In this document: positions 909 to 46,328 of the stretch, piece by piece | Layout of the letters: each line of letters begins with the position of its first letter | Numbering within the stretch: the stretch's first letter is position 1 | Source: an uncultured Bacilli bacterium | Lineage (GTDB): Bacteria; Bacillota_I; Bacilli_A; RF39; UBA660 | Length of the DNA: 47,596 nt | Assembly (NCBI GenBank): GCA_947595045.1 | Contig: CANQEN010000002.1 | Coordinates: 1-47,596 of the forward strand | Direction: 5' to 3' | Made by a program: the position numbers and the translations under genes | Notes under the pieces: model-generated | Seen by the model: only the letters and a program-made list of their open reading frames with translations | Told to the model about the DNA's origin: nothing | The model's database searches: none

Positions 909-951
909 AAAAAAGAAATTAAAATTTTAACAATTAATTTCTTTTTTTTTT
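909..951. terminator. Bidirectional rho-independent terminator between convergent tuf and fem-like genes
   Basis: Hairpin AGAAATTAA (914-922) / TTAATTTCT (934-942), flanked by an A-run on the left and a T-run on the right. It overlaps the last codons of the minus-strand gene. Confidence 0.6.
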
Positions 952-2160
952 AGTTATAGCATAAATAGTTGGATTAATAATTAATTCAAAATCACCAATA
1001 TACTCTAATCCTTCAGCACCAAAACTTAATTTAGAATGATTTAATCCTTTATCTATATTTTCGTTAGATAGGGGACTTATTAAATTACCTAAGTTAAAAA
1101 CTTTGTAATTTTCTTTAGTATATTTATCTATTAGTTTCCAAATTAATAATGGTCTTGCATTAAACATTTTATATTTATAATCTATACTATCTAAATATAA
1201 ATATACTTGATTTCGATATTTAATTGTAATAGCGCAAGCAATGATTATACCATTAGGATAATCACGAAGTAAATTAGTGGCATATACTAATTGTTTTTTT
1301 AGATTATTCAGTTCATTATCTGCTGCAATTTTCTTAGCAATGAATTTTTCATTGTTTCTTCCTTTTTCACTGAATACATTATCAGTTCTTTTACGACATT
1401 CAACAATTTGTTTTTGATATTTTATTTGAATATGTCTAAGATACAGTGATGGATCTAAATGAGCAAAATGTATATCTAACATATCACTTTGGCTAAAGTA
1501 TTTATATATATTTTCAATATCTTTTTGCTCATAGGAATATTTATACTTTAATTGTTCATACATAAAAGGTATTTGTAATTCGTTTCCTTTATAAATTCTA
1601 ATACCTTTAGCATCACTACTTCTAATTTTAGTACGATAATTTTTGTGTATGTCTACAAAAGAATTTACAATATTGCGATCAATATTTAAAATAGCATCAA
1701 AGGTAGATGTAGAATTAATATGATTATATTTTAAAGATTTTAGTGTTGTAATAATTTTTCCTGCTTGTGGGTTAATATCAGTAATAAGATTGTGACCTTT
1801 AAAGATGTACTTTGCTTGCCAAATTAAAGGAGAAATAGTTAGAGTCACTATCCCTTTTTTCTTTAACCAATTTTTTATTAATTTAGTAAATTCAGTTAAT
1901 AAATTATTATCATTATAATCAATTAAGAACCCTTTTGGAGCATAAGCATACTTTAATTTATTATTTTCCTTAATACAAATTAAAGAAGCAGCTATTATAT
2001 TATTATAATCATTTTTAATACCTATGAAAAATGATGAATTAAATTTATGATTAGTTATTAATCCATATTCTTTTGTTTGGTATATAGAATAGATAGGATA
2101 ATTATTGGTAAATTCACTAAACTCATCATTAGAAAGTTCTACTAATTGCATAATAACCAC
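934..2160 (-). CDS. FemAB/FemX/MurM-family aminoacyl-tRNA-dependent peptidoglycan interpeptide-bridge transferase
   Basis: 408 aa. Two acyltransferase-like halves are separated by a coiled-coil insert (KKIAADNELNNLKKQLVYA), as in the staphylococcal Fem proteins. YAPKGFL and C-terminal FGAEG...IGDFE segments are present. GTG start at 2160; alternative ATG at 2151. Confidence 0.7.
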   Translation of the reverse strand: MVIMQLVELSNDEFSEFTNNYPIYSIYQTKEYGLITNHKFNSSFFIGIKNDYNNIIAASLICIKENNKLKYAYAPKGFLIDYNDNNLLTEFTKLIKNWLKKKGIVTLTISPLIWQAKYIFKGHNLITDINPQAGKIITTLKSLKYNHINSTSTFDAILNIDRNIVNSFVDIHKNYRTKIRSSDAKGIRIYKGNELQIPFMYEQLKYKYSYEQKDIENIYKYFSQSDMLDIHFAHLDPSLYLRHIQIKYQKQIVECRKRTDNVFSEKGRNNEKFIAKKIAADNELNNLKKQLVYATNLLRDYPNGIIIACAITIKYRNQVYLYLDSIDYKYKMFNARPLLIWKLIDKYTKENYKVFNLGNLISPLSNENIDKGLNHSKLSFGAEGLEYIGDFELIINPTIYAITKKKRN

Positions 2161-2220
2161 GCATTCCTTTCATTTTGTTAAAGGCATACAGAGTCATGAA
2201 AATAATTATTTTTCAGACTA
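2161..2220 (-). promoter_or_regulatory. Conserved 60-nt leader module, copy A, directly upstream of the fem-like gene
   Basis: Reverse complement reads TAGTCTGAAAAATAATTATTTTCATGACTCTGTATGCCTTTAACAAAATGAAAGGAATGC then GTGGTTATTATG. It aligns without gaps to 3305-3376 and 23326-23397. Confidence 0.6.
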
Positions 2221-2387
2221 CATCTTTTTTCAATACCAATAAATTATATCATAATTATTATTCTTTTCCCATAATATAGTATTAAATTTATTAAAAAGAT
2301 TATAATTATTTGATTTGGCATTCGCTTTTTATTTTTGACATTATTTTACATAATATTGGTAATATTATTTATTTTATGTGAAAATAT

Positions 2388-2443
2388 GTTAGAAAAGTAA
2401 TTAATTTTGTTATAATGAGTGTAGAGACTAGTATTTTACTAGT
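2388..2443 (+). promoter_or_regulatory. Putative sigA promoter (extended -10) plus 5'-UTR hairpin of the FolD-like gene
   Basis: TGT-TATAAT at 2408-2416 with a weak -35 GTTAGA at 2388-2393. A perfect inverted repeat ACTAGTA-TTT-TACTAGT lies at 2427-2443, between the -10 and the SD (AAAGGAG). Confidence 0.35.
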
Positions 2444-2472
2444 TCATAAACTAAAAAGGAGCGAATTTAATT

Positions 2473-3297
2473 ATGTGTAAGATATTAAGTTGTATTGAAT
2501 TAAATGAGCAGATTCAAGAACGGATTAAGCAGGAATTGAAAACTTGTATGATTAGACCGAGCATTGCTGTTATTAAAGTCGGAGATAATGAGTTAATTGA
2601 TTTTTCAGTTAAGAAAAAAGAACAATTGTGTAGTAATATTGGTATTTATTTTAGATTATTTGAGTTTGAAAATAATACTCCAGAGTTAGCCATAATTAAT
2701 AAGATTAAAGAATTAAATAATGATGAATATGTACATGGCATTATGGTTGAATTACCATTGCCTAATAATTATAATGAACGAAGAATATTAAATTCTATTA
2801 GTAATGTAAAGGATATTGATGGATTAACGGATATAAATGCTGGACGTTTAATGAATGGACGCAGAGCCTTGATTCCTAGTACTGCGCAATCTGTTTTTAA
2901 GATATTAGAAATGTATAATATACCTGTTTTTGATAAAAATATTTTTATTATTGGTGGATTAACTCATATAAATCGTTCATTGACTAGTTTATTTATGGCA
3001 AAAAAAGCTAACGTGATTTGGTGTCAAGATGAAGCTACTAATATCGATGATAAATTATCTTTGGCTGATATAATTATTATTGGTAGTGATATAAGTGATA
3101 TGTTTAATATTAAATGCCTGAAAGATGAATCGATTATTATAGATTTGGGTATTTGGAAAAATCACCAGTTTACATCAATTATAGATGAAACAATTATTAA
3201 AGAATATACTCATGTCTCTATTCCTAATGGTATTAATTTAGTTGCATTATCTATATTATTAGAAAATGTTATGTTATGTTATAAAAATATAAAATAA
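2473..3297 (+). CDS. Divergent FolD-like protein (methylene-THF dehydrogenase/cyclohydrolase fold) with eroded cofactor-binding motifs
   Basis: 274 aa. N-terminal half is FolD-like (PSIAVIKVGDN, VKKKEQLCSNIGI, HGIMVELPLP, KDIDGLTDINAGRL). The Rossmann motif G-x-S-x-x-VG-x-P reads IIGGLTHINRS, and PGGVGPMT reads IPNGINLVA. Confidence 0.6.
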   Translation: MCKILSCIELNEQIQERIKQELKTCMIRPSIAVIKVGDNELIDFSVKKKEQLCSNIGIYFRLFEFENNTPELAIINKIKELNNDEYVHGIMVELPLPNNYNERRILNSISNVKDIDGLTDINAGRLMNGRRALIPSTAQSVFKILEMYNIPVFDKNIFIIGGLTHINRSLTSLFMAKKANVIWCQDEATNIDDKLSLADIIIIGSDISDMFNIKCLKDESIIIDLGIWKNHQFTSIIDETIIKEYTHVSIPNGINLVALSILLENVMLCYKNIK

Positions 3298-3304
3298 TAG
3301 GTTA

Positions 3305-3364
3305 TAGTCTGAAAAATAATTATTTTCATGATTCTGTGTGCCTTTAATAAAGTGAAAGAAATGT
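3305..3364 (+). promoter_or_regulatory. Conserved 60-nt leader module, copy B, directly upstream of the SLT-like gene
   Basis: TAGTCTGAAAAATAATTATTTTCATGATTCTGTGTGCCTTTAATAAAGTGAAAGAAATGT then GTGGTTATAATG. Palindrome at 3310-3328. Confidence 0.6.
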
Positions 3365-4459
3365 GTGGTTATAATGGATAAAATACAAGATAAATATTAT
3401 AGTACTGGATCAACAGATAAACATAATTATAATAGAAATAGAAAATATAAATTAGGGCATTATAATAGTTATCATACTATTGAAAAAGGTAAATGGCCTA
3501 AAATAATAAAAAATGGGGTCTGCTTAGTAGTTGGAAGTATAACAATATTAGTTTTTTCTAATAAGCTAATTGGCAATTATAGTGAACAAAATGTGACTTA
3601 TAATATTGAAAATATATCTAATATTAATGGAACCAACACTATTTATAGTGTTGAAGAAACATCTAATACTACGGTAGAGGAATCTTCTGAATTGACTACT
3701 GTTGATTCTTTTTCACTTGAAAACAGAATCAAAAATATCCCACAGAATAGTCAATTTATGATTGGGACGAAGGTAGATACTAATAAACTGACTGAATTTT
3801 CTGATACAGAGATGGGTAAAATATTTATTAAGTATGCACAACAGTTTGGAATAGACCCATATTTATTAATAGCCCAGGCTATTCAAGAAACACAATTAAA
3901 TCATTGGGATTTTATCTGTGGTGGAAATAAATATAATGGTTATAGTGTGGGTGTTTGTCAATTGGAAAATCCTAGTGGAAATCCCATCACGGCATATGAT
4001 TATAATTGTAATGAGTATATAACTGAATATATTACAATGGATAATGCACAAAATCTAGATACCAATATTAAAATAGCAACTATGCAAATGCAAAATAAAT
4101 TATATGATTATAATGGTAATCCATATTTAGCGTTGCAGTCTTATAATTATGGTACTGGTATGATAGATATAGCTTTAAATCATTATAGTGAAGAAATAGG
4201 ACAATCTGTTGAAAACATAATGCAAGATTATCAAAATTTTGGATGGCTAAAATATATTTATGATATGCATGAAAATCCTAGTAAGTATTTATCAAATTGG
4301 AGTTTTAATACTTATGGTGATGGAGAATATATTAAACATGTTTTGCAATATTTTCCTGGTACTAATACATATTATAATTATGATAATAAATTATATGAAA
4401 TTAATTTAAATAATGGTGAAATTGTAAAAGTGGATATTATTGATAATAAAGTAAAATAA
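3365..4459 (+). CDS. Membrane-anchored lytic transglycosylase (SLT/GH23-like domain)
   Basis: 364 aa with an N-terminal TM (GVCLVVGSITILVF). SLT motifs: LIAQAIQETQLN (catalytic Glu), GVCQL, ALQSYNYGTG. GTG at 3365; alternative ATG at 3374. Confidence 0.7.
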   Translation: MVIMDKIQDKYYSTGSTDKHNYNRNRKYKLGHYNSYHTIEKGKWPKIIKNGVCLVVGSITILVFSNKLIGNYSEQNVTYNIENISNINGTNTIYSVEETSNTTVEESSELTTVDSFSLENRIKNIPQNSQFMIGTKVDTNKLTEFSDTEMGKIFIKYAQQFGIDPYLLIAQAIQETQLNHWDFICGGNKYNGYSVGVCQLENPSGNPITAYDYNCNEYITEYITMDNAQNLDTNIKIATMQMQNKLYDYNGNPYLALQSYNYGTGMIDIALNHYSEEIGQSVENIMQDYQNFGWLKYIYDMHENPSKYLSNWSFNTYGDGEYIKHVLQYFPGTNTYYNYDNKLYEINLNNGEIVKVDIIDNKVK

Positions 4460-10488: not shown

Positions 10489-12528
10489 ATGAAAAAAAAA
10501 ATAATTATAGGGTTAATCGGAATATTAGTTATAGCAGGAATACTAATTGGCATTTATAAATTAAATATAATAGATAATGGTGTTTCTTTTTCTGTATCAG
10601 AGCAACAGTGGCTATCAAATAATAAAAATAATATTATTGATATATATGTTCCAAGTGACATATCTATTTTTTCAAATATGGGTAAAGGTGTTGTTTTTGA
10701 CTTAATTAATGATTTTAGTAATGATAATAAGATAAAAATAAATGCTACTGCTTATGAATTGCAAAATAATTTGACTGATATAAGTTATGCCATCGAATTA
10801 GTAGATAAAGTTGGTAAAGATCAAATATTACTTTATAAAGATAGTTATGCATTAGTAGTTAAAGATGATAAAAAATATAATAATATATCAAATATTAGTA
10901 ATTTGAAATTGGGAGTATTAAATCAAGATTTAGATTTAGCTAATTCTTATTTCGGTGATAATAATGAAATAAGTGGTTTTGCTAATTTGGAGGAGTTAAA
11001 TAGTAAGTTTATCTCGGGAGATGAATCATTAGATGGAGTTATTGTATTACGTAGTCTATATTTGCAAGAAATATTGGAACATAATTATCATATAGCTTAT
11101 CATATATCAGAAATGACTAAGAACTTTGTTATTACTACTAAGGGAGATAAAATCTTAAATAATATTTTTCAAAAGTATACTAAAAATTGGCTTAAAGAAA
11201 ATATAGAGAGTTCTTATAATGCACATTTATTAGATGAATATTTTACTATTAAAGGAATTACAGATAAAGAAAAGAATTCTTTGCAAGAAAAGACTTATAC
11301 ATATGGTTATATAAATAATGGTATTTATGATTTTACTAGTGGTAATGATTTATATGGAATTAATTATTATATAATAAAAGCATTCGCTAAATTAGCAAAT
11401 ATTGATATGGATTATCATAAGCCATATAAGACAGCTAAAGAATTAAATAATGCATTAGAACAAAAAAAGATTGATTTTTATTTTAATGATATAGGTACAA
11501 AATGTACCAACCAATGTTTTTCAACTATAGATGCAATTAATAGTGATATTGTGTTTTTAACTAATGTTAACAATGATTTTATTATTAATTCATTAGCTAG
11601 CCTTCAAAATCAAAAAATTAATGTTGTGAAAAACTCGATGATTGCTAAATATTTAAAGGAAAATAAAATTAAAGTTAAAGAATATGATAATATAAATAAA
11701 TTGTTATCAAATGTTAAGAAAACTGATATATTAGCACTTGATCTCAAGAGTTACGAGTATTATAGTGATGAACTGCTTAGATTATATAAAATACAATATA
11801 TAGATCAGTTTAAATTAAATTATGGATATATAATTAATGAAGATAATAAAACATTTATGAATTTATTTAATTTTTACTTAGAATATACACCAATACATAG
11901 TATTGTTAATCGTAGCTATGGTGACATATACGTTAAAAATTATAATCAACTTATTATGTTCGTTGTTATTTGTATATTATCATTAATAGTTATATTTTTC
12001 TTAATTCGTGATTTAAGAAAATTTATTAAAATAATTAAGAAAAGAAAACATAAGACTTTATCAAAACAAGAAAAATTAAAATATATAGATCAATTAACTT
12101 CTTTAAAAAATAGAGCCTATTTAAATGACAATATTGAATTATGGGATGCTTCATTAATTTATCCTCAGGCAATAGCTGTGATTGATTTGAACAATATTGC
12201 CTATATAAATGATAACTTTGGTCATGAGGAAGGTGATAAAGTCATTGCTGAAGCTGCTAACATTTTAATTAGGACACAATTACCAAGAACGGAAATTATT
12301 AGAACTGATGGTAATGAATTCTTAGTATATATGATAGAATATAATGAAAAGCAAATAGTATCTTATTTAAAGAAAATAACAAAGGAATTTAAAGAATTAA
12401 CTCATGGTTATGGAGCTGCTATGGGATATAGTATTATTAATGATGAAATAAAAACAATTGATGATGCTGTTAATGAAGCAACTATTGCTATGAAAGAACA
12501 TAAACAAAGTATGATGTCTGATGAATAG
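10489..12528 (+). CDS. Membrane receptor with two extracytoplasmic solute-binding-like regions and a degenerate cytoplasmic GGDEF domain
   Basis: 679 aa. N-terminal TM, long extracytoplasmic part, second TM (MFVVICILSLIVIFFLI), then a GGDEF fold: DQLTSLKNRAYL, NDNFGHEEGDKVI, with DGNEF in place of GGDEF. Confidence 0.75.
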   Translation: MKKKIIIGLIGILVIAGILIGIYKLNIIDNGVSFSVSEQQWLSNNKNNIIDIYVPSDISIFSNMGKGVVFDLINDFSNDNKIKINATAYELQNNLTDISYAIELVDKVGKDQILLYKDSYALVVKDDKKYNNISNISNLKLGVLNQDLDLANSYFGDNNEISGFANLEELNSKFISGDESLDGVIVLRSLYLQEILEHNYHIAYHISEMTKNFVITTKGDKILNNIFQKYTKNWLKENIESSYNAHLLDEYFTIKGITDKEKNSLQEKTYTYGYINNGIYDFTSGNDLYGINYYIIKAFAKLANIDMDYHKPYKTAKELNNALEQKKIDFYFNDIGTKCTNQCFSTIDAINSDIVFLTNVNNDFIINSLASLQNQKINVVKNSMIAKYLKENKIKVKEYDNINKLLSNVKKTDILALDLKSYEYYSDELLRLYKIQYIDQFKLNYGYIINEDNKTFMNLFNFYLEYTPIHSIVNRSYGDIYVKNYNQLIMFVVICILSLIVIFFLIRDLRKFIKIIKKRKHKTLSKQEKLKYIDQLTSLKNRAYLNDNIELWDASLIYPQAIAVIDLNNIAYINDNFGHEEGDKVIAEAANILIRTQLPRTEIIRTDGNEFLVYMIEYNEKQIVSYLKKITKEFKELTHGYGAAMGYSIINDEIKTIDDAVNEATIAMKEHKQSMMSDE

Positions 12529-13555: not shown

Positions 13556-14332
13556 ATGAAAAAATTTTTAAGCCTAAGTTTAGTTTGTATTTTATTGCTC
13601 TTTATGGTAATTTCACCAGTAAAAGCATTAACTGTGTGGAATTATAATGATTGGCAAGATGGTAAGGATTATGGATCAAAAACTAGAATTTCGTCTAATA
13701 TAACTAATCTTAAAGGAGAAAAAGAAGAACAGAAAGGAATGAAGGTAGGACCTTTTAATAAAGCAAGTAAAGCAAAATTAAGCGATGGAATTACAGAAGA
13801 AGTTTATGTAGGACTTAATCTAAATGATTATCAAAATTCAGAATTATTTGAGTTATCTATAGCTTTAAATCAACAACAAAAGGGCGAAGATGCTAAATAT
13901 TTAACAGAAGCTGTTGTTATGACGCAAAAAAGTGAAGGTAAATTTGTTTTAACTTCAGGTTGGGCAAAAGATAAAAATCCAATAGCTACAATAGACTCAG
14001 ATGGCGTATATACATATAGATGGGAATTTAAAAAGGACAATGATAATAAAATTCAGGTGCGATTTACAGTATTAAATTATGGAAAGGAATTAGGCACAAC
14101 AGGTTTTGTAAAACTAGAAGTAGAAAATTTTGATAAAGCTACTGATGTTAGATATCTATGGGCATGTAATATTAAAGCTAACTATGGTGTAGATATATAT
14201 ACAACATTACCAGAGAATTCAGTAGAAAATCCAGATACTTCTGATATTAATTTATTTTTATTCATTGTATTAATTATTGTCAGTGGCTTTGGTTTAATTT
14301 ATATTAAAAAAGAAAGTTTAATTCATAATTAA
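13556..14332 (+). CDS. Secreted protein with a C-terminal membrane anchor, function unknown
   Basis: Signal peptide (LLLFMVISPVKA|L), about 200-aa ectodomain, C-terminal TM (LFLFIVLIIVSGFGLIYI) followed by KKE. Confidence 0.5.
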   Translation: MKKFLSLSLVCILLLFMVISPVKALTVWNYNDWQDGKDYGSKTRISSNITNLKGEKEEQKGMKVGPFNKASKAKLSDGITEEVYVGLNLNDYQNSELFELSIALNQQQKGEDAKYLTEAVVMTQKSEGKFVLTSGWAKDKNPIATIDSDGVYTYRWEFKKDNDNKIQVRFTVLNYGKELGTTGFVKLEVENFDKATDVRYLWACNIKANYGVDIYTTLPENSVENPDTSDINLFLFIVLIIVSGFGLIYIKKESLIHN

Positions 14333-15990: not shown

Positions 15991-18018
15991 ATGATAATTA
16001 GATATTATAATGGATATATTGGTTATGAGGAGTTAAAAGAGTTAACCAAAATTACAAAAGACGGGACAACAGCTTTTCATTTAATCGAAGCAGCTAAACA
16101 AATTGGTTTTAAAGCTATGGGTGTTCAATGTACATTAGATAATATTAATAGCGAGAATATAGTACTACCTTGTATTGCTAATGTTATTATGAATAATTCA
16201 TATCGACATTTTGTTGTCATTTATGAAATCAATTATAAAAAAGGATATTTAGTAATAGGTGATCCATCTAATAAAGTCATAAAAATGTCTTTTGATATTT
16301 TTAAATCAATATTTAGTGGTGTCTTAATTATTCTTTATCCAGAACAAGTCTTACCTATAAAGGGAGAAAATAAAATATCTATTTTAATGCTTTGGAATAT
16401 ATTGAAATTACACACACCTTTATTATTTCAAATCATAATTATGTCATCATTGGTAGCCATTTTCTCTATTGTTTCATCTTTTTATGTTGAGACGATGATT
16501 AATGGTATTAATGAAACTAATTCAATAAGTTATTTGTTTTTTCTTTTTCTAATTTTTACTGTTATTTATTTGATGAAAATTATTAGTAATTTTCTTCGAG
16601 ATAAAATATTAGTACTCCTTACTCAGAAATTAGATTTAATTTTAACTATGGATACTTTTAAGAAAGTTTTATTGCTTCCTTATAATTATTATCGAAATCG
16701 TACTACTGGTGATATTATTTCGAGGATACAAGATTTAACATCTATTAAAGGTATTATAGGGCAATTTTTAGTTACAATAGCTGTAGATTTACCATTATCA
16801 TTGATTGCTTTTGCTGTGTTATATATTATTAATAATCAATTATGTGGGATTGTAATAATTATGGCAGGTCTTTATTTTCTTATTATGATCATATTTCAAT
16901 CTATGTTTGAACACTGTATAAATAAAGAACAACAATCAAGAGCTAATACTAATTCTTATATGGTAGAAGCCATTAGTGGCTTTGAATCTGTGAAGGGATT
17001 AAAGATGGAATCTAAAATATTGGATAATTTTGAAAAAAAATATGTTAAATACCTAAAATTGACATCTCATCATCAAGAATTGTATATTACGCAGTCAATG
17101 TTAAAAGAATTGGTATATTATTTGGGATTTTTAGTAATTACTTTAATTGGTTCTTGGTATGTTATTGATAATAAGATGTCTTTAGGCAGTTTACTTACTT
17201 TCCATAGTTTATTGTTTTACTTTTTAGATCCAATTCAGAGTATGATTAATTTAAATCATGAATGGAAAGAAGTTAAAAATGCGTTGAGAAGAGTTTTAGA
17301 GATGCAAATAAAAAATAATAATTCTACTGGTTTTTTGGATATATCAATGACTGGTGATATTGAATTTAGGAATGTTAATTATTCTTTTAATGACCGTGAT
17401 AAAGTATTAAATAATATTTCATTTACTATTAAACAAAATGAAAAATTAATGATTGTTGGAAGAAGTGGAGGAGGAAAAAGTACTTTATTAAAATTATTAA
17501 TGAAATACTATGCTGTTCCTAGAGATAATATTTTTATTAATAATATTGATATAAATGATTATTTAGATTCTAAGAATGTTTATTATATTAATCAACAAGA
17601 GACTTTATTTACAGGAAGTATTTTACAAAATATTGTTGGTAATAGTGATGTAGATAATGAAACGGTATTGGGAATTGCTAAAATATGTGCAGTAAATGAT
17701 ATAGTAAAAAATAGTTCTTTAGGATTTAATGAATTAGTAGAAGAAAATGGCTTTAATTTTTCAGGTGGTGAAAGACAAAGAATTATCCTAGCTAGGGCAT
17801 TAATTAATCCATTTAATATTTTAATTATTGATGAAGGAACTAATCAGATCGATATTGATTTGGAACGAAAAATTTTAAAAGCTATTTTTAAAAAATTCCA
17901 TGATAAAACGATAATAGTTATATCACATCGTTTGGATAACTTAGATTTATTTAATCATATGATTGAAATTGAAAATGGTAAATTAGTAAAGGATGTTAAA
18001 TATAATGAAAAAAATTGA
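15991..18018 (+). CDS. Bacteriocin-type ABC exporter with N-terminal C39 peptidase domain (coordinates from the first ATG; homology extends upstream to about 15931)
   Basis: Walker A GRSGGGKST, signature FSGGERQR, Walker B ILIIDEGT, H-loop ISHR, six-TM core. The C39 motif KQEEFKDCGAASLSMII is encoded in-frame at 15949-15999, so the catalytic Cys codon (15970-15972) precedes the first ATG. Confidence 0.85.
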   Translation: MIIRYYNGYIGYEELKELTKITKDGTTAFHLIEAAKQIGFKAMGVQCTLDNINSENIVLPCIANVIMNNSYRHFVVIYEINYKKGYLVIGDPSNKVIKMSFDIFKSIFSGVLIILYPEQVLPIKGENKISILMLWNILKLHTPLLFQIIIMSSLVAIFSIVSSFYVETMINGINETNSISYLFFLFLIFTVIYLMKIISNFLRDKILVLLTQKLDLILTMDTFKKVLLLPYNYYRNRTTGDIISRIQDLTSIKGIIGQFLVTIAVDLPLSLIAFAVLYIINNQLCGIVIIMAGLYFLIMIIFQSMFEHCINKEQQSRANTNSYMVEAISGFESVKGLKMESKILDNFEKKYVKYLKLTSHHQELYITQSMLKELVYYLGFLVITLIGSWYVIDNKMSLGSLLTFHSLLFYFLDPIQSMINLNHEWKEVKNALRRVLEMQIKNNNSTGFLDISMTGDIEFRNVNYSFNDRDKVLNNISFTIKQNEKLMIVGRSGGGKSTLLKLLMKYYAVPRDNIFINNIDINDYLDSKNVYYINQQETLFTGSILQNIVGNSDVDNETVLGIAKICAVNDIVKNSSLGFNELVEENGFNFSGGERQRIILARALINPFNILIIDEGTNQIDIDLERKILKAIFKKFHDKTIIVISHRLDNLDLFNHMIEIENGKLVKDVKYNEKN

Positions 18019-20217: not shown

Positions 20218-20310
20218 CTATAGTTAGAAAATAACATAAAATAATTGATAAAAGGTTCAATATTCTAATTATATGAATGTTTTGAATTTGTGAAAGGAAT
20301 GTGACTGAGT

Positions 20311-23229: not shown

Positions 23230-23325
23230 GGGGCAGTTTTGAATATATCTATATGCATTGATTATCTCTATTATTGATTGACATTTCCAATATTGTTTCA
23301 TATAATATGGTTATATTTTGAACAT

Positions 23326-23385
23326 TAGTTTGAAAAATAATTATTTTCATGACTCTGTGTGCCTTGAACAAAGGGAAAGGGATGT
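23326..23385 (+). promoter_or_regulatory. Conserved 60-nt leader module, copy C, directly upstream of the SGNH-like gene
   Basis: TAGTTTGAAAAATAATTATTTTCATGACTCTGTGTGCCTTGAACAAAGGGAAAGGGATGT then GTGGTTATTGTG. Confidence 0.6.
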
Positions 23386-24342
23386 GTGGTTATTGTGAAT
23401 ATTATCACCGAAGTTACTAAAAAATATTCAATACTCTCTAAAGATGAAGCTATATCTAGAATTATTGATAATAGTGACTTATTTTTTAAGAATTTAGAAG
23501 AATATTTAAAATTGATGAAAATAGAAAAAGTTAATTTTGTTGGTATTGGTAATTCATTAAGTGCAGGTTGGTCTGCTATTGATCAAGACGTTAGACCGTT
23601 TATCTTAAAATTACAAGAAATAATGAAAGATCAAATTATAAAAAAAGGGTTTGATATAAGCTTTTATAATTATGCACTTGCTGCTAATAATTCTAATGAG
23701 AAGATATTGAATTTTTTACAGGGAAATCCAACCGAAAAAGATGTAAAGCATCATTTTATAAATGATGTCAATCAATGGAAAAAAAAGTTTGATAATACTC
23801 TTTTAGAAAACTATATTGATTTAAATAAAGCTTTAGACTTTTATCCAAATTCCAATACTGCTTTTAAAAATGTTTATTGTGATAATATATTAACGTTTAC
23901 TCTTTTAAATAGTTGTACTGGTGGTTTTTTAGAATCATTAAAGAAAAAGAAACTAAAAGATATGAAAGATTCTTTTAAAAAAGACAAAGAATATTTAGTT
24001 AGTATAATTGATTATTTAAAACAGTTAAAAAAAGAAAATATCAATTTAATTTCAGTGGGTAATTTTCCATATATATCAACTTCATCAGGGGTATTAATCA
24101 ATAAATTAATTGATTATCTCATAAATGATGATATTCAAAAAATTTGCTTAAATAATAACGTAACTTATTTTAATAAAAATCAAATTGCTTTATTTCAAAA
24201 ATACAAAAATCCTCATACTATAGCATATGGTATAAAGGTTGATAATCATCCTCGAATGGATGAACAGTATACAGTATTATATTATTATTTTAATAGTGTA
24301 ACTGAAATGTTGGAAACTAAAAAAAAGTTATTAATTAGATAG
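23386..24342 (+). CDS. SGNH/GDSL-family hydrolase-like protein (possible peptidoglycan or lipid esterase)
   Basis: 318 aa. Block I FVGIGNSLSAGWS (GDS(L)-like, Ser nucleophile) and C-terminal VDNHPRMDE (D-x-x-H). No signal peptide is evident. Confidence 0.6.
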   Translation: MVIVNIITEVTKKYSILSKDEAISRIIDNSDLFFKNLEEYLKLMKIEKVNFVGIGNSLSAGWSAIDQDVRPFILKLQEIMKDQIIKKGFDISFYNYALAANNSNEKILNFLQGNPTEKDVKHHFINDVNQWKKKFDNTLLENYIDLNKALDFYPNSNTAFKNVYCDNILTFTLLNSCTGGFLESLKKKKLKDMKDSFKKDKEYLVSIIDYLKQLKKENINLISVGNFPYISTSSGVLINKLIDYLINDDIQKICLNNNVTYFNKNQIALFQKYKNPHTIAYGIKVDNHPRMDEQYTVLYYYFNSVTEMLETKKKLLIR

Positions 24343-29405: not shown

Positions 29406-29698
29406 TAGTCATTGCTATTTACATCGTTGTTAATCCAATTATTTAATAAGAAAGCTTTTATTTCTTCATCAGCACTTTGATAATAAAGAATTGATAGCCA
29501 ATTTTTACAATTTTCAGATAAATTTTGTTCATTCAATTTTTTATTTGTATTAATAAAAAAATCTTTAGTTGAATCAGCTGCTAACATAGCTAAATCTTTT
29601 AGAAAGTTACTTGGTAAATTATTAATGAATTTATCATCTAAATATGCTAAAATGGTTAATAATTCTTTAGCTATATCATTATCTAAAACTTTTTTCAT
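29405..29698 (-). CDS. Hypothetical small helical protein, partner of the upstream overlapping gene
   Basis: 97 aa, overlaps the upstream ORF by 20 nt. Predicted all-helical with an acidic C-terminus. No recognisable motif. Confidence 0.45.
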   Translation of the reverse strand: MKKVLDNDIAKELLTILAYLDDKFINNLPSNFLKDLAMLAADSTKDFFINTNKKLNEQNLSENCKNWLSILYYQSADEEIKAFLLNNWINNDVNSND

Positions 29699-30575
29699 TA
29701 TCTTTTTCTTCCTTTTGTATAAAATAATTTTGAACTTTATAAATAAATTTTCTTATTTCTGAAAGTAATCTTTTACTTGCCATTTCTTGAATTTCATGTG
29801 TTGTAAATTTTGGATTATTGTCAGCTTCCTTTTTATAAACCTCTGGTTTAATTTTTATAGCTCCACAATCATCAATATAATAAGCTTTCTTGCTAAGATC
29901 ACGAAGACCTAAAACAGCTATTTGATTATTATTTATTATTTGTTTAACAAAGCTAATTTTATCTTCAGGAACGCAAATGCAACTGATGTATTTTAAAGGA
30001 AAATGGTTCATAACGCCTATTTCTGATATATCCGAGTGAATAGAAATTATTTCTCTTCTAGCTAAGTTAGTTTCGTTAATACCAATAACAATACTAAAAG
30101 ATAGTTGAGAGTTTTTGTTAGTTGATAGTGTAGAATAACCCTCAGCAATATCTAAAACATCTGTAAAACTAATAAAATTTCTTTTTTGATACAATTGAGT
30201 TGACCTTTCACCAGTTAATATAGGTATCCCTTTTTCCTCTAAAGTAGCATAAGAATTTATTCCGTATTTTAAGATATTAGGAAGGGCATTAGCATTAGTT
30301 CCATGAAAAATATTAATATTATTTTCAACTAAAAAATTAAATGTTTCAGGATTAGTTAAAAGTACACTAGATAAGGATATACGCCTGCTTATTTCTATCA
30401 TTGGATTATTCCGACATTGAAATTGCGATTTAAGGCTATAATTATCTATTTTACCATTATATAAAATTTTTTGTAATTTATATTGAGTTTCTTTGTTTCG
30501 AGCTAAACTAAAGAAAGTGTCACATATTTTATTATAATTACCAGATTTCATTAATTGCTCTAAAGAAAAACTCAT
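29679..30575 (-). CDS. Hypothetical protein with a weak ADP-ribosyltransferase-fold (Tpt1/KptA- or PARP-like) motif pattern
   Basis: The ATG at 30575 is preferred (GAGGT, 8 nt, ATG) over the GTG at 30599. IFHGTNANALPNILKYGI, then NFISFTDVLDIAEGYS, then a later SEIGV, recalls H-G-T ... (V/F)-H/S-L/F-S/T ... E of NAD-utilising ART folds. Confidence 0.4.
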   Translation of the reverse strand: MSFSLEQLMKSGNYNKICDTFFSLARNKETQYKLQKILYNGKIDNYSLKSQFQCRNNPMIEISRRISLSSVLLTNPETFNFLVENNINIFHGTNANALPNILKYGINSYATLEEKGIPILTGERSTQLYQKRNFISFTDVLDIAEGYSTLSTNKNSQLSFSIVIGINETNLARREIISIHSDISEIGVMNHFPLKYISCICVPEDKISFVKQIINNNQIAVLGLRDLSKKAYYIDDCGAIKIKPEVYKKEADNNPKFTTHEIQEMASKRLLSEIRKFIYKVQNYFIQKEEKDNEKSFR

Positions 30576-30780
30576 ATTATCTAACCTCATTAACTTCACT
30601 ATTAATATTATTATATCTTATATTTAAATCAGCTGAAATAAAAAAATAATTCTTACAAAATGTTTCACATAAACTTTATAAGTAAATTTATCTTAATATT
30701 TTTCTATATCACAAAATAAAAATAGAGTTAATACATAAAAACTCATTATTGTGTAAAGAAGCTTTTGAGGTCAAATTAAG

Positions 30781-32026: not shown

Positions 32027-32032
32027 TAGGTG

Positions 32033-32227
32033 CTAGAAGGTAAGGTTTGTCTTTATTGAAAAACCTACTAAATTAACGAATTGGGAATCTGATTTTTATG
32101 GATCGTGTTGAATGCTTTAGTGTTCTAGAGAATCCTGATATCTATAATAAGATACCCACCTGGTAGAACAGGTTTTAATCGTTAAGTGACGCCTGCCTTT
32201 TGGCTTTTTTATTATGTTGGAGGTTGT
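32033..32227 (+). ncRNA. Unclassified ~195-nt leader or small RNA between the promoter and the exonuclease gene
   Basis: No credible long ORF. Several alternative pairings: GTAGGT / ACCTAC, GGTAAGGTTT / AAACCTAC, CTAGAA / TTCTAG. Weak GCC-TTTT-GGC plus T6 at 32203-32218, just before the SD GGAGG. Confidence 0.3.
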
Positions 32228-33300: not shown

Positions 33301-34077
33301 ATGGCACGTCATAAAGTAGAAATTTGTGGCGTGAATACTGCGAATATTAAAGTATTAACTAATGAGGAGATGATTACTTTATTTAAAAAGATGCAAGCAG
33401 GTGACTTGCAAGCAAAAGAAGAATTAATAAATGGCAATTTAAAATTAGTATTATCAATTCTTCGTAAATATAATAACAGAACTGATAATATGGATGATTT
33501 ATTCCAGGTAGGTTGTATTGGACTTATTAAAGCAATAGATAATTTTGATTTAGGTCATGGAGTTAAATTTTCAACATATGCTGTACCTATGATTGTGGGA
33601 GAAGTAAAAAGATACATTAGAGATAATAATAGTGTTAGAATTGCAAGAGGAATAAAAGATACAGCCTATCGGATTATTCGATTACGTGAAGAATTGACTA
33701 ATAAAAATGGTATAGAGCCTAGTGTTCAAACAATATGTCAACAGTTAAATATAGATGAATATGATTATGCGTTAGCACTAGATTCTCAAAAAGATAGTAT
33801 TAGTATGTTTGAACCTATTTATAGTGATGGAGGAGATGTAATCTACCTGTCTGATCAATTAGAAGATAAAACGGACACCTTATACAGTTTAGAATATAAA
33901 ATTAGTTTATATGATGCTTTAGATAAATTAAAAGAGAAAGAAAAATATATTATAAATTCTAGATATTTATATGGAAAAACGCAAATGGAATTGAGTGAAG
34001 AATTAGGGATTAGTCAAGCCCAAATTTCCCGATTAGAAAAAAGTGGTTTAGATAATATTAGAAAAATGATTAATTAG
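33301..34077 (+). CDS. sigG: Sporulation sigma factor SigG
   Basis: MARHKVEICGVNT..., DLFQVGCIGLIKAIDNFDLGHGVKFSTYAVPMIVGEVKRYIRDNNSVRIARGIKD, FEPIYSDGGDVIYLSDQ, GKTQMELSEELGISQAQISRLEK. The match to B. subtilis SigG is close along the whole length, and closer than to SigF. Confidence 0.9.
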   Translation: MARHKVEICGVNTANIKVLTNEEMITLFKKMQAGDLQAKEELINGNLKLVLSILRKYNNRTDNMDDLFQVGCIGLIKAIDNFDLGHGVKFSTYAVPMIVGEVKRYIRDNNSVRIARGIKDTAYRIIRLREELTNKNGIEPSVQTICQQLNIDEYDYALALDSQKDSISMFEPIYSDGGDVIYLSDQLEDKTDTLYSLEYKISLYDALDKLKEKEKYIINSRYLYGKTQMELSEELGISQAQISRLEKSGLDNIRKMIN

Positions 34078-45167: not shown

Positions 45168-46328
45168 GTGAATAAAGAAATAAGCGAACAATTGGATGCA
45201 TTAGAGCAAAAGATTAATGGTGAACAAAAAACAGAAACAGTAAATAGTGAAGACGATTTCTTCTATCCAGAAGAAAATAATACTTTTTTATCAGAACCAG
45301 TAAAATATGTTGATATGGATCAAATAGAAGCTATGGATACAGTTAATACTATGACTAATAAAGAAAACAATAATGAAAATATTGATGAAACTTTACCTGA
45401 ACCATCTGATATTATTGTGCCAATAGATAATACTATTCCTGAACAAGTTGCTAAGAATGTTTCTTTTGATACAATGTTTGATAGTTTATATACTGATGTA
45501 GCTGGTGCTAATAGTTTTATTACTGATTTATTAGGTCAGAGAAAGGCTTTAGAGGATGCTAATAATAGTTTAGAAGAAGCTAAGAGACAATTTGAAAGAG
45601 AAAAAGAAGACTTTGAAAAATATGTTAAAGTACAAAAAGAAAGTTTAGAGTTAGATAAAGCTCAATGTGATGAATATATTGAACATCAAAAAGCTAGATT
45701 TGTACAAGAACAACAAGAATTTGAGAAAGAAAAAGAAGTAGAAAGAGATAGTATTAAAATAGAAAGAAACAAGTTAGAACAAGAAAAAACTAATTTTGCT
45801 AAAGATTTAGCTAAGTTAGAAAAACAAAGGACACTAAATGATACTAGAAATGAGAAAACAAAAGAAAAATTAAATAGAGAACGTGAAAGTTTTAATAAAG
45901 AAATTGAAATTGAGCGAGCACGTATTGTTAATGAACAGAATAAATTACAAGATATAAAAGAAAAAAATGAGCAAGAATTAATGACTGATCGTATGGTTTT
46001 CTCAAATGATGTAGTAGCGTTAGCTAAGGAACGTGAAGAATTTGAAAATTATAAAAAAGTAGAAGAAGAGAATATTCAATTAGAAAAAAATAAATTGATT
46101 CGTGAGACTGAAGAATTTGCTAGTTATAAGAAAATAGAGGAAGAACAATTACAAATAGCTAAAGATGAGTTAGATGATCAACGTGAAGAATTTGAGGCTT
46201 ATCGTAAATTAGAGGAAGATAGATTAGAATTAGAGAATAAAGAATTATCTAAGAGTTGTGCTAAATTTAGAGAATTAGTATCACAATTTAATAAAGGTTT
46301 TAAAAGTTTACCAGATAATAATGAATAG
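45168..46328 (+). CDS. Hypothetical protein: acidic N-terminus plus long coiled coil built of ~25-aa E-E-F-x-x-Y-K-K repeats
   Basis: 386 aa. SD GAGGGAGA precedes the GTG. Repeats EREEFENYKKVEEENIQLEKNKL / TEEFASYKKIEEEQLQIAKDEL / REEFEAYRKLEEDRLELENKEL. Confidence 0.5.
   Translation: MNKEISEQLDALEQKINGEQKTETVNSEDDFFYPEENNTFLSEPVKYVDMDQIEAMDTVNTMTNKENNNENIDETLPEPSDIIVPIDNTIPEQVAKNVSFDTMFDSLYTDVAGANSFITDLLGQRKALEDANNSLEEAKRQFEREKEDFEKYVKVQKESLELDKAQCDEYIEHQKARFVQEQQEFEKEKEVERDSIKIERNKLEQEKTNFAKDLAKLEKQRTLNDTRNEKTKEKLNRERESFNKEIEIERARIVNEQNKLQDIKEKNEQELMTDRMVFSNDVVALAKEREEFENYKKVEEENIQLEKNKLIRETEEFASYKKIEEEQLQIAKDELDDQREEFEAYRKLEEDRLELENKELSKSCAKFRELVSQFNKGFKSLPDNNE

Follow-up and report, generated by a model that had tools for sequence, protein, structure and literature searches.

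Near-identical upstream regions that stand before unrelated genes have been described as putative mobile promoters. More than 4000 families are reported in which upstream regions at least 80% identical precede non-homologous genes of one genome, the interval sampled being -150 to -50 (Matus-Garcia, Nijveen, van Passel 2012; commentary PMC3575422). Here we describe a 69-nucleotide (nt) element, termed the module, that is present in three copies (A, B and C) in a 47.6-kb stretch of DNA from an uncultured Bacilli bacterium (assembly GCA_947595045.1, contig CANQEN010000002.1, positions 1 to 47,596; hereafter the window). The module resembles the published families in that its copies are 86-89% identical over 72-81 nt, the threshold there being at least 80% over at least 50 nt, in that the adjacent genes (FemAB, SLT and SGNH-fold) are non-paralogous, and in that no insertion sequence element is associated with it. 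It also raises the question already put by those authors, of whether such uniformity reflects youth or selection. It differs in that it spans -69 to -1 rather than -150 to -50, carries a ribosome-binding site and contains no promoter hexamers. On the best reading the module therefore belongs to the putative mobile promoter kind, but the piece that has been copied is a leader with its ribosome-binding site and not a promoter.

Other described elements share single features with the module. CIRCE, the binding site of HrcA, is an inverted repeat in the transcribed leaders of the groESL and dnaK operons; it works as an operator on the DNA and has an effect on the mRNA as well. The module, too, has its inverted repeat downstream of the transcription start and ahead of the start codon in several transcription units of one genome, and it could plausibly act on DNA and RNA alike. 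However, its arms are AT-rich, its conservation reaches the start codon, no conservation is seen across taxa, and its best match to the CIRCE consensus (TTAGCACTC-N9-GAGTGCTAA) is mismatched at 9 of the 18 specified positions in each copy. The ydaO (cyclic di-AMP) and glmS riboswitch leaders also lie in the 5' leaders of cell-wall-metabolism genes, but the module is much shorter than these and has no Rfam match, conserved multi-helix core or phylogenetic breadth, nor any covariation among its three near-identical copies. Correia, ERIC, RUP and REPIN elements are likewise short intergenic repeats that contain a palindrome and may change how a neighbouring gene is expressed. Unlike them, the module lacks both terminal inverted repeats and a target duplication, is tied to genes in position and orientation, and occurs only three times in 47.6 kb.

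The three copies (Table 1) form a genuine repeat. A preliminary description of the window had pointed to three homologous stretches at these positions, and both alignment and a repeat search recover them, with pairwise identities of 87% over 76 nt (B and C), 86% over 81 nt (A and B) and 89% over 72 nt (A and C). A MAFFT alignment shows a conserved block that runs uninterrupted from TAGTYTG to GGTTAT in all three copies, with flanks that cannot be aligned. Within this block the 22-mer TGAAAAATAATTATTTTCATGA is identical in every copy (0.03 expected; none of 100 shuffles gave three matches). The module is the sole strong non-coding repeat family of the window and, in agreement with the preliminary description, neither nhmmer nor a covariance model finds a fourth copy there; copy number and gene set refer to these 47.6 kb of the genome only. 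Copies A and B are inverted around folD, as had been observed, with arms of 81 nt that are 86% complementary and 1066 nt apart. The proteins had been described as unrelated past the shared stretch, and in the alignment similarity is indeed gone after the start codon.

The position of that start codon determines what the module is. The preliminary description had taken a shared GTG GTT ATW as coding, with all three proteins starting MVIM or MVIV, but this does not hold. FemAB orthologues begin MKIKELTNEEF, which aligns with the MQLVELSNDEF found at the next ATG after the shared codons, and the gene callers used for public assemblies place the FemAB start at the same downstream ATG, with a 405-amino-acid product on record. 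The orthologues of the gene downstream of copy C (hereafter gene C; n = 4) begin exactly at the GTG that had been counted as its fourth codon. We compared the ribosome-binding sites with approximately 34 others in the window. Taking the upstream GTG as the start gives an aligned Shine-Dalgarno spacing of about 2 nt, versus 4-8 nt for most genes of the window, and this start was rejected on the grounds of both spacing and orthologue N-termini. The shared GTG GTT ATW is thus most likely non-coding. With the start at the former fourth codon, the module would be a 69-nt non-coding 5' untranslated region (UTR) that includes the ribosome-binding site, and its 3' end lies 0-1 nt before the start codon in all three copies.

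The artefact responsible for the coding appearance of the module recurs elsewhere in the list of open reading frames (ORFs) for the window, where several starts are a GTG within a GGTGA-type Shine-Dalgarno sequence (7001, 9482, 20850, 25523 (-) and 29679-30599 (-)), the true ATG lying 2-4 codons downstream. Separately, an upstream ORF of 17-23 codons that could start from an ATG within the 5' palindrome of the module in all copies was rejected by inspection, because it has no Shine-Dalgarno sequence, its substitutions are mostly non-synonymous and its stop-free length is unremarkable (estimate approximately 0.2).

From its 5' end the module consists of an AU-rich imperfect palindrome or hairpin (P1, module positions 2-29), a conserved block CUCUGURUGCC, a possible short CCUUU/AAAGG hairpin (P2) and a purine-rich Shine-Dalgarno sequence GAAAGRR. 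The last lies approximately 10-11 aligned nt from the start codon, which is long for this genome, though folD and sipS are similar. A hand count from the alignment gives 11 variable positions among the 69; the singletons number 3, 4 and 4, which makes a star pattern. Transitions account for 8 of the 11 substitutions and a third state is seen at no site, which indicates that the copies are unsaturated. Variable sites number 2 of 33 in the 5' half and 9 of 36 in the 3' half (binomial p of approximately 0.045, also from a hand count). The two substitutions that fall within P1 each turn C into U and retain G-U pairing on the sense strand.

Each copy is preceded by its own predicted promoter. Exactly one strong sigma-A-type -10 site is predicted in the 60 nt upstream of each copy, ending 19-22 nt before it. 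Strong -10 sites occur at 1.75 per kb per strand, which gives a 0.7% chance per copy that one falls within any particular 4-nt interval; the placement at 19-22 nt is therefore not due to chance. The -35 and -10 hexamers lie outside the conserved block and are mutually non-homologous, as is the 19-22-nt stretch between -10 box and module. From the distance to the -10 box it follows that the module would be transcribed, entering approximately 12-15 nt into each predicted mRNA. Copy B begins 7 nt past the folD stop with no terminator between them, and there is no terminator-like site near A or B; copy B is thus probably an intercistronic RNA element in addition. A promoter inside the module was rejected, as no match above background was found for sigma A, E, F, G, H or K or for extracytoplasmic function (ECF) sigma factors. 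The earlier statement that the module contains no clean fit to sigA, ECF or sporulation sigma consensus sequences is supported by this motif scan.

Comparison with relatives suggests what the module replaced. The nearest relatives are metagenome-assembled genomes (MAGs) of uncultured gut Bacilli from rabbit, goat and human, with protein identities of 55% or less, and the orthologous loci examined were those of femAB (L004-L009 and 80 GTDB loci), gene C (L092-L096) and the SLT gene (L104). The femAB orthologues keep synteny with tuf and have ordinary promoters, a strong Shine-Dalgarno sequence (AAGGAGGG) and no module. The gene-C orthologues (48-55% identity) have promoters of the TTGACA/TTGACT-17-TATAAT type, followed by a UTR of approximately 25-30 nt with an AAGGGGG Shine-Dalgarno sequence. 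The closest SLT relative lies in a different operon and has no module. Judged from its orthologues, gene C has kept its putative ancestral promoter, and the short leader with a strong Shine-Dalgarno sequence has been replaced by the module.

We consider the best explanation, with a probability of about 0.4, to be that the module is a lineage-specific transcribed leader and ribosome-binding-site cassette that acts on the mRNA through a common trans-acting factor. The cassette would supplant the short native 5' UTR at three or more unrelated genes, each retaining its own sigma-A promoter, and would be a propagated upstream region that was either copied a short time ago or is held uniform through gene conversion. 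P1 and the conserved single-stranded block may form the recognition site for one trans-acting protein or small RNA. Such a factor could tune translation initiation or mRNA stability of the three messages jointly, through the weak ribosome-binding site of the cassette, which is partly paired with CCUUU. Three times, and each time with an identical 3' junction, a good native ribosome-binding site has apparently been displaced; this suggests that the ribosome-binding site of the cassette is part of the functional unit. For an operator alone, a place ahead of the native Shine-Dalgarno sequence would have served, yet the weaker site of the cassette has always been carried along, and action at the level of the mRNA is therefore slightly favoured over a DNA operator.

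Several observations weigh against this explanation. The argument that the ribosome-binding site belongs to the unit draws on three junctions. Folding gives no excess stability over shuffled sequence (z = -0.91 for A, +0.50 for B and -0.19 for C), P1 is weak (-3.9 to -6.5 kcal/mol) and the minimum free energy structures differ among the copies. In a model of P1 and P2 no pair is changed on both sides, as judged from three near-identical sequences only; in P1, two pairs have changed to G-U, and in P2 two pairs are disrupted (copies B and C). Rfam 15 gives no match to the module at the gathering threshold, its sole match in the window being 6S RNA, and an RNAduplex scan for an antisense or small-RNA partner in the window returned nothing beyond expected extremes. 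The module is absent from approximately 100 related loci (637 kb) by nhmmer and covariance model, and also from the orthologous upstream regions when read directly. A genome collection contained no exact match to the 24-mer ATTATTTTCATGAYTCTGTRTGCC, a metagenome collection had one unrelated chance match to the exact 22-mer (L011), a viral collection had none apart from one chance match (L010), and the matches that blastn gave among phages and plasmids were all AT-rich chance ones with E of at least 0.2. The three copies come from effectively one strain, and their conservation may be mere youth. A link to the cell wall is backed for two of the three genes and putative for the third.

As far as can be seen in the loci and collections scanned, the module is confined to one species-level lineage. 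All other contigs of the species are 99.7-100% identical and offer no informative substitutions. Conservation in relatives had been proposed as a test in the preliminary description, and the outcome is negative at the orthologous femAB, gene-C and SLT loci, in relatives that are distant (55% identity or less). If the cassette is indeed a regulatory unit, several genes would have been rewired together, not through the evolution of a separate binding site for each but by copying a ready-made leader and ribosome-binding site between promoter and start codon, and the module would mark a small co-controlled envelope gene set in an uncultured gut lineage. On present evidence it is one more family of near-identical upstream regions from one species, with neither structural nor comparative support, and its general significance is limited.

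The alternative that survives best, although we regard it as unlikely, is a DNA operator, at which a dimeric repressor bound to the invariant palindrome would block promoter clearance or elongation in the manner of CIRCE and HrcA. The palindrome, TGAAAA-N7-TTTTCA around a perfect 14-mer, lies at roughly +18 to +36 from the predicted transcription start. No long stretch other than the palindromic 22-mer is identical in every copy, the near-fixed distance of 19-22 nt from the -10 box is a typical repressor position, and the symmetry of the palindrome reaches the centre, which an RNA loop would not need, while the RNA fold is weak. Against this, the perfect 14-nt palindrome to which the preliminary description drew attention is present but is weak evidence, as 24 such palindromes are observed in the window where 13 are expected. 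Conservation also continues for approximately 40 nt past the palindrome to the start codon, and the native Shine-Dalgarno sequence was replaced in all three cases, which an operator alone does not require.

Nor did any operator consensus tested stand out. The published operator consensuses of WalR, CodY, Fur/PerR, ArgR (ARG box), CcpA (cre), Rex, LexA, CtsR and TnrA matched no better than background, and the promoter consensuses of sigma E, F, G, H and K and of ECF factors gave no match above the AT-rich background. For nine of the motifs (CodY, Fur, PerR, ARG box, WalR, sigma G, H and K, and TnrA) the background was taken from random 150-nt windows of the same DNA, and their best mismatch counts fall within the random-window distribution. 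The only positionally consistent match was to a loose CtsR pattern on the antisense strand, with 1, 3 and 2 mismatches, the strict consensus having 4 mismatches in copy A. No helix-turn-helix regulator was found among the window ORFs in Pfam and NCBIfam scans.

A broader proposal, that the module is an undescribed regulatory leader (RNA element or leader operator) that would define a cell-wall-remodelling regulon in an uncultured, spore-forming gut Bacilli lineage and would have spread by precise replacement of native ribosome-binding sites, appears doubtful. On that proposal the module would be a mobile leader and ribosome-binding-site cassette and not a mobile promoter. The preliminary description had suggested an operator, promoter or cis-regulatory RNA shared by a cell-wall regulon. 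From that suggestion the tie to gene starts and the predicted transcription stand, whereas structured-RNA, transcription-factor and sigma-factor searches lend it no support.

We think it similarly doubtful that there is no dedicated regulator at all, and that the copies are young duplicates, or gene-converted versions, of a generic 5' UTR and ribosome-binding site kept for adequate expression. Divergence is low and unsaturated, dominated by transitions and star-like, the module occurs in none of the relatives and it gives no structural or motif signal. Its 3' part is like the ordinary sipS ribosome-binding site (GTGAAAGGAATGTGA). Most putative mobile promoter families have no known function (PMC3575422). 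It is, however, hard to see how three independent swaps of a strong ribosome-binding site for a weaker, oddly spaced one, with identical junctions, would occur if selection had played no part. A functional relation links at least two of the three targets, and the 5' half is the more conserved (see above). The sipS site itself (20290-20310 (+), GTGAAAGGAATGTGActgagtATG) is closely similar to the 3' part of the module and also has a long spacing from Shine-Dalgarno sequence to start codon.

That the module is a riboswitch sensing a metabolite such as a cell-wall precursor, P1 being the aptamer and CCUUU/AAAGG a Shine-Dalgarno-sequestering platform, is very improbable. The attraction of this idea lies in a transcribed leader that adjoins the ribosome-binding site of cell-wall genes, and folding bears out the earlier remark that CCUUU pairs with AAAGG in copy A and more weakly in B and C. 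However, P2 is broken in the latter two copies. The AU-rich fold is also weak, lacks a conserved arrangement of several stems and shows no covariation among these three near-identical sequences. The preliminary description could assign the module to no riboswitch or leader class, and no Rfam family matches it; a search at E values of up to 10 over positions 2000-3500, which take in copies A and B, returned nothing but snoRNA and STnc420 noise. Known riboswitch classes are widely conserved, and the module has no such phylogenetic spread.

Just as improbable is a selfish miniature repeat, such as a miniature inverted-repeat transposable element, a repetitive extragenic palindrome or a Correia-like element, that landed by chance in three intergenic regions. 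The module is short and dispersed with an internal palindrome, and Logan contigs break inside it, as they do at repeats. The two ends of the module (TAGTCTGAAA... and ...GTGTGGTTAT) do not repeat each other in inverted form, though, so that it has no terminal inverted repeats, and there is no target-site duplication. All three copies are sense-oriented, with the same start-codon junction and a fixed distance to the -10 box. There is no copy in genes or other intergenic regions of the window, and nothing comparable was found in the phage, plasmid and viral collections.

The least probable explanation is that A and B are a recombination substrate for inverting the folD segment and swapping the femAB and SLT promoters (phase variation): their arms have the required inverted arrangement, but the window, L001 and L103, which were assembled separately, share a single orientation, no recombinase was found when the window ORFs were scanned against Pfam and NCBIfam, copy C is left unexplained, and the inverted state would give both genes the same leader. 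Three further candidates were rejected, namely a terminator, for the reason given above, the attL and attR sites of an island (B and C being direct repeats 20 kb apart), because the interval holds the housekeeping genes rpsU, rplS, sipS, trmB and recX; and an integron attC site, for which no core-site match was seen by eye.

Table 1. Coordinates of the module copies, their parts, the predicted promoters upstream and the genes downstream, in window positions.
Feature	Position	Strand	Description	Evidence
Module copy A	2152..2220	-	69-nt leader up to FemAB ATG (2151-2149)	Alignment, repeat search, nhmmer (E=6e-25)
Module copy B	3305..3373	+	69-nt leader, 7 nt past folD stop, up to SLT ATG (3374)	Alignment, repeat search, nhmmer
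Module copy C	23326..23394	+	69-nt leader up to GTG (23395) of SGNH-fold gene	Alignment, repeat search, nhmmer
P1 of copy A	2192..2219	-	Imperfect 28-nt palindrome/hairpin AGTCTGAAAAATAATTATTTTCATGACT; 22-mer at 2194-2215; -6.5 kcal/mol	
P1 of copy B	3306..3333	+	22-mer at 3310-3331; one G-C pair changed to G-U; -4.2 kcal/mol	
P1 of copy C	23327..23354	+	22-mer at 23331-23352; one C-G pair changed to U-G; -3.9 kcal/mol	
Shine-Dalgarno-like GAAAGRR, copy A	2165-2171	-		Ribosome-binding-site comparison
Shine-Dalgarno-like GAAAGRR, copy B	3354..3360	+		Ribosome-binding-site comparison
Shine-Dalgarno-like GAAAGRR, copy C	23375-23381	+		Ribosome-binding-site comparison
Extended -10 box TGaTATAAT	2243..2251	-	Ends 22 nt upstream of copy A	
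Extended -10 box TGtTATAAA	3277..3285	+	Within folD 3' end; ends 19 nt upstream of copy B	
Perfect TTGACA-17-TATAAT promoter	23278..23306	+	12/12 matches; ends 19 nt upstream of copy C	
FemAB-family aminoacyltransferase gene	934..2151	-	Downstream of copy A	Pfam PF02388, E=5e-38
SLT-domain lytic transglycosylase-like gene	3374..4459	+	Downstream of copy B	Pfam PF01464, E=2.7e-8
SGNH/GDSL-fold protein gene (gene C)	23395..24342	+	Downstream of copy C	AlphaFold model

The preliminary description assigned all three downstream genes to peptidoglycan. This stands for FemAB and SLT, which by their Pfam matches are predicted to be bona fide cell-wall enzymes; the SLT protein has a hydrophobic N-proximal stretch, judged by eye, and its homologues likewise bear an SLT domain. 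For the third protein, which has no sequence match in Pfam, NCBIfam or PDB and belongs to a tiny family of five clusters among 5.8 billion proteins, such a role is no more than putative. The guess that the third protein is SGNH-hydrolase-like proved correct at the level of fold, since its AlphaFold model (predicted template modelling score 0.82) finds GDSL/SGNH esterases as all of its top PDB fold matches. No obvious signal peptide or membrane segment is apparent at its N-terminus by eye from the translation, no predictor having been run, and the gene-C product would be a cytoplasmic SGNH-fold protein. In a second strain (L103, 99.7% identical) the SLT gene carries an in-frame deletion of approximately 22 codons (window 4121-4184), giving a protein of 339 rather than 361 amino acids.

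The window has a G+C content of 25.5%, and its genes include tuf, femAB, folD, the SLT gene and a dcw-type cluster (ftsW, mraY and a PBP2B-like gene). Two matches make it probable that the organism forms endospores. A SigG-like sporulation sigma factor (33301-34077 (+)) scores 361 bits in NCBIfam, just below the equivalog cut-off of 372, and there is a weak SpoIIIAF-like match at 13556-14332 (+). The 6S (SsrS) RNA (Rfam RF00013, 75 bits; 32027-32210 (+)) immediately precedes a gene for an RNase T-like exonuclease. Two further genes are notable; they encode a large membrane GGDEF diguanylate-cyclase-like protein (10489-12528 (+)) and a bacteriocin-export-type ABC exporter with a C39 peptidase (15991-18018 (+)). 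An ORF at 45168-46328 (+), with no Pfam match, contains five tandem coding repeats of 75-78 nt that are rich in Glu and Lys and have a coiled-coil-like look.

Outside the window, a cysteine-rich small ORF (CxxC, approximately 52 amino acids) that is absent from the window lies just upstream of the femAB orthologue in two of the related loci (L004 9768-9925 and L007 9759-9926). The unrelated metagenomic contig that gave the chance match to the 22-mer (L011, BNJU01003164.1) carries three to four tandem TTATTTTCATGAA boxes at 3411-3500 (-), possibly an operator array. Upstream of one gene-C orthologue, in a rabbit-gut MAG (GCA_947628495.1; L093 5985-6012), three direct repeats of TTGACACAAAT with an 11-12 bp period lie over the -35 box, an arrangement that looks like a response-regulator binding array.

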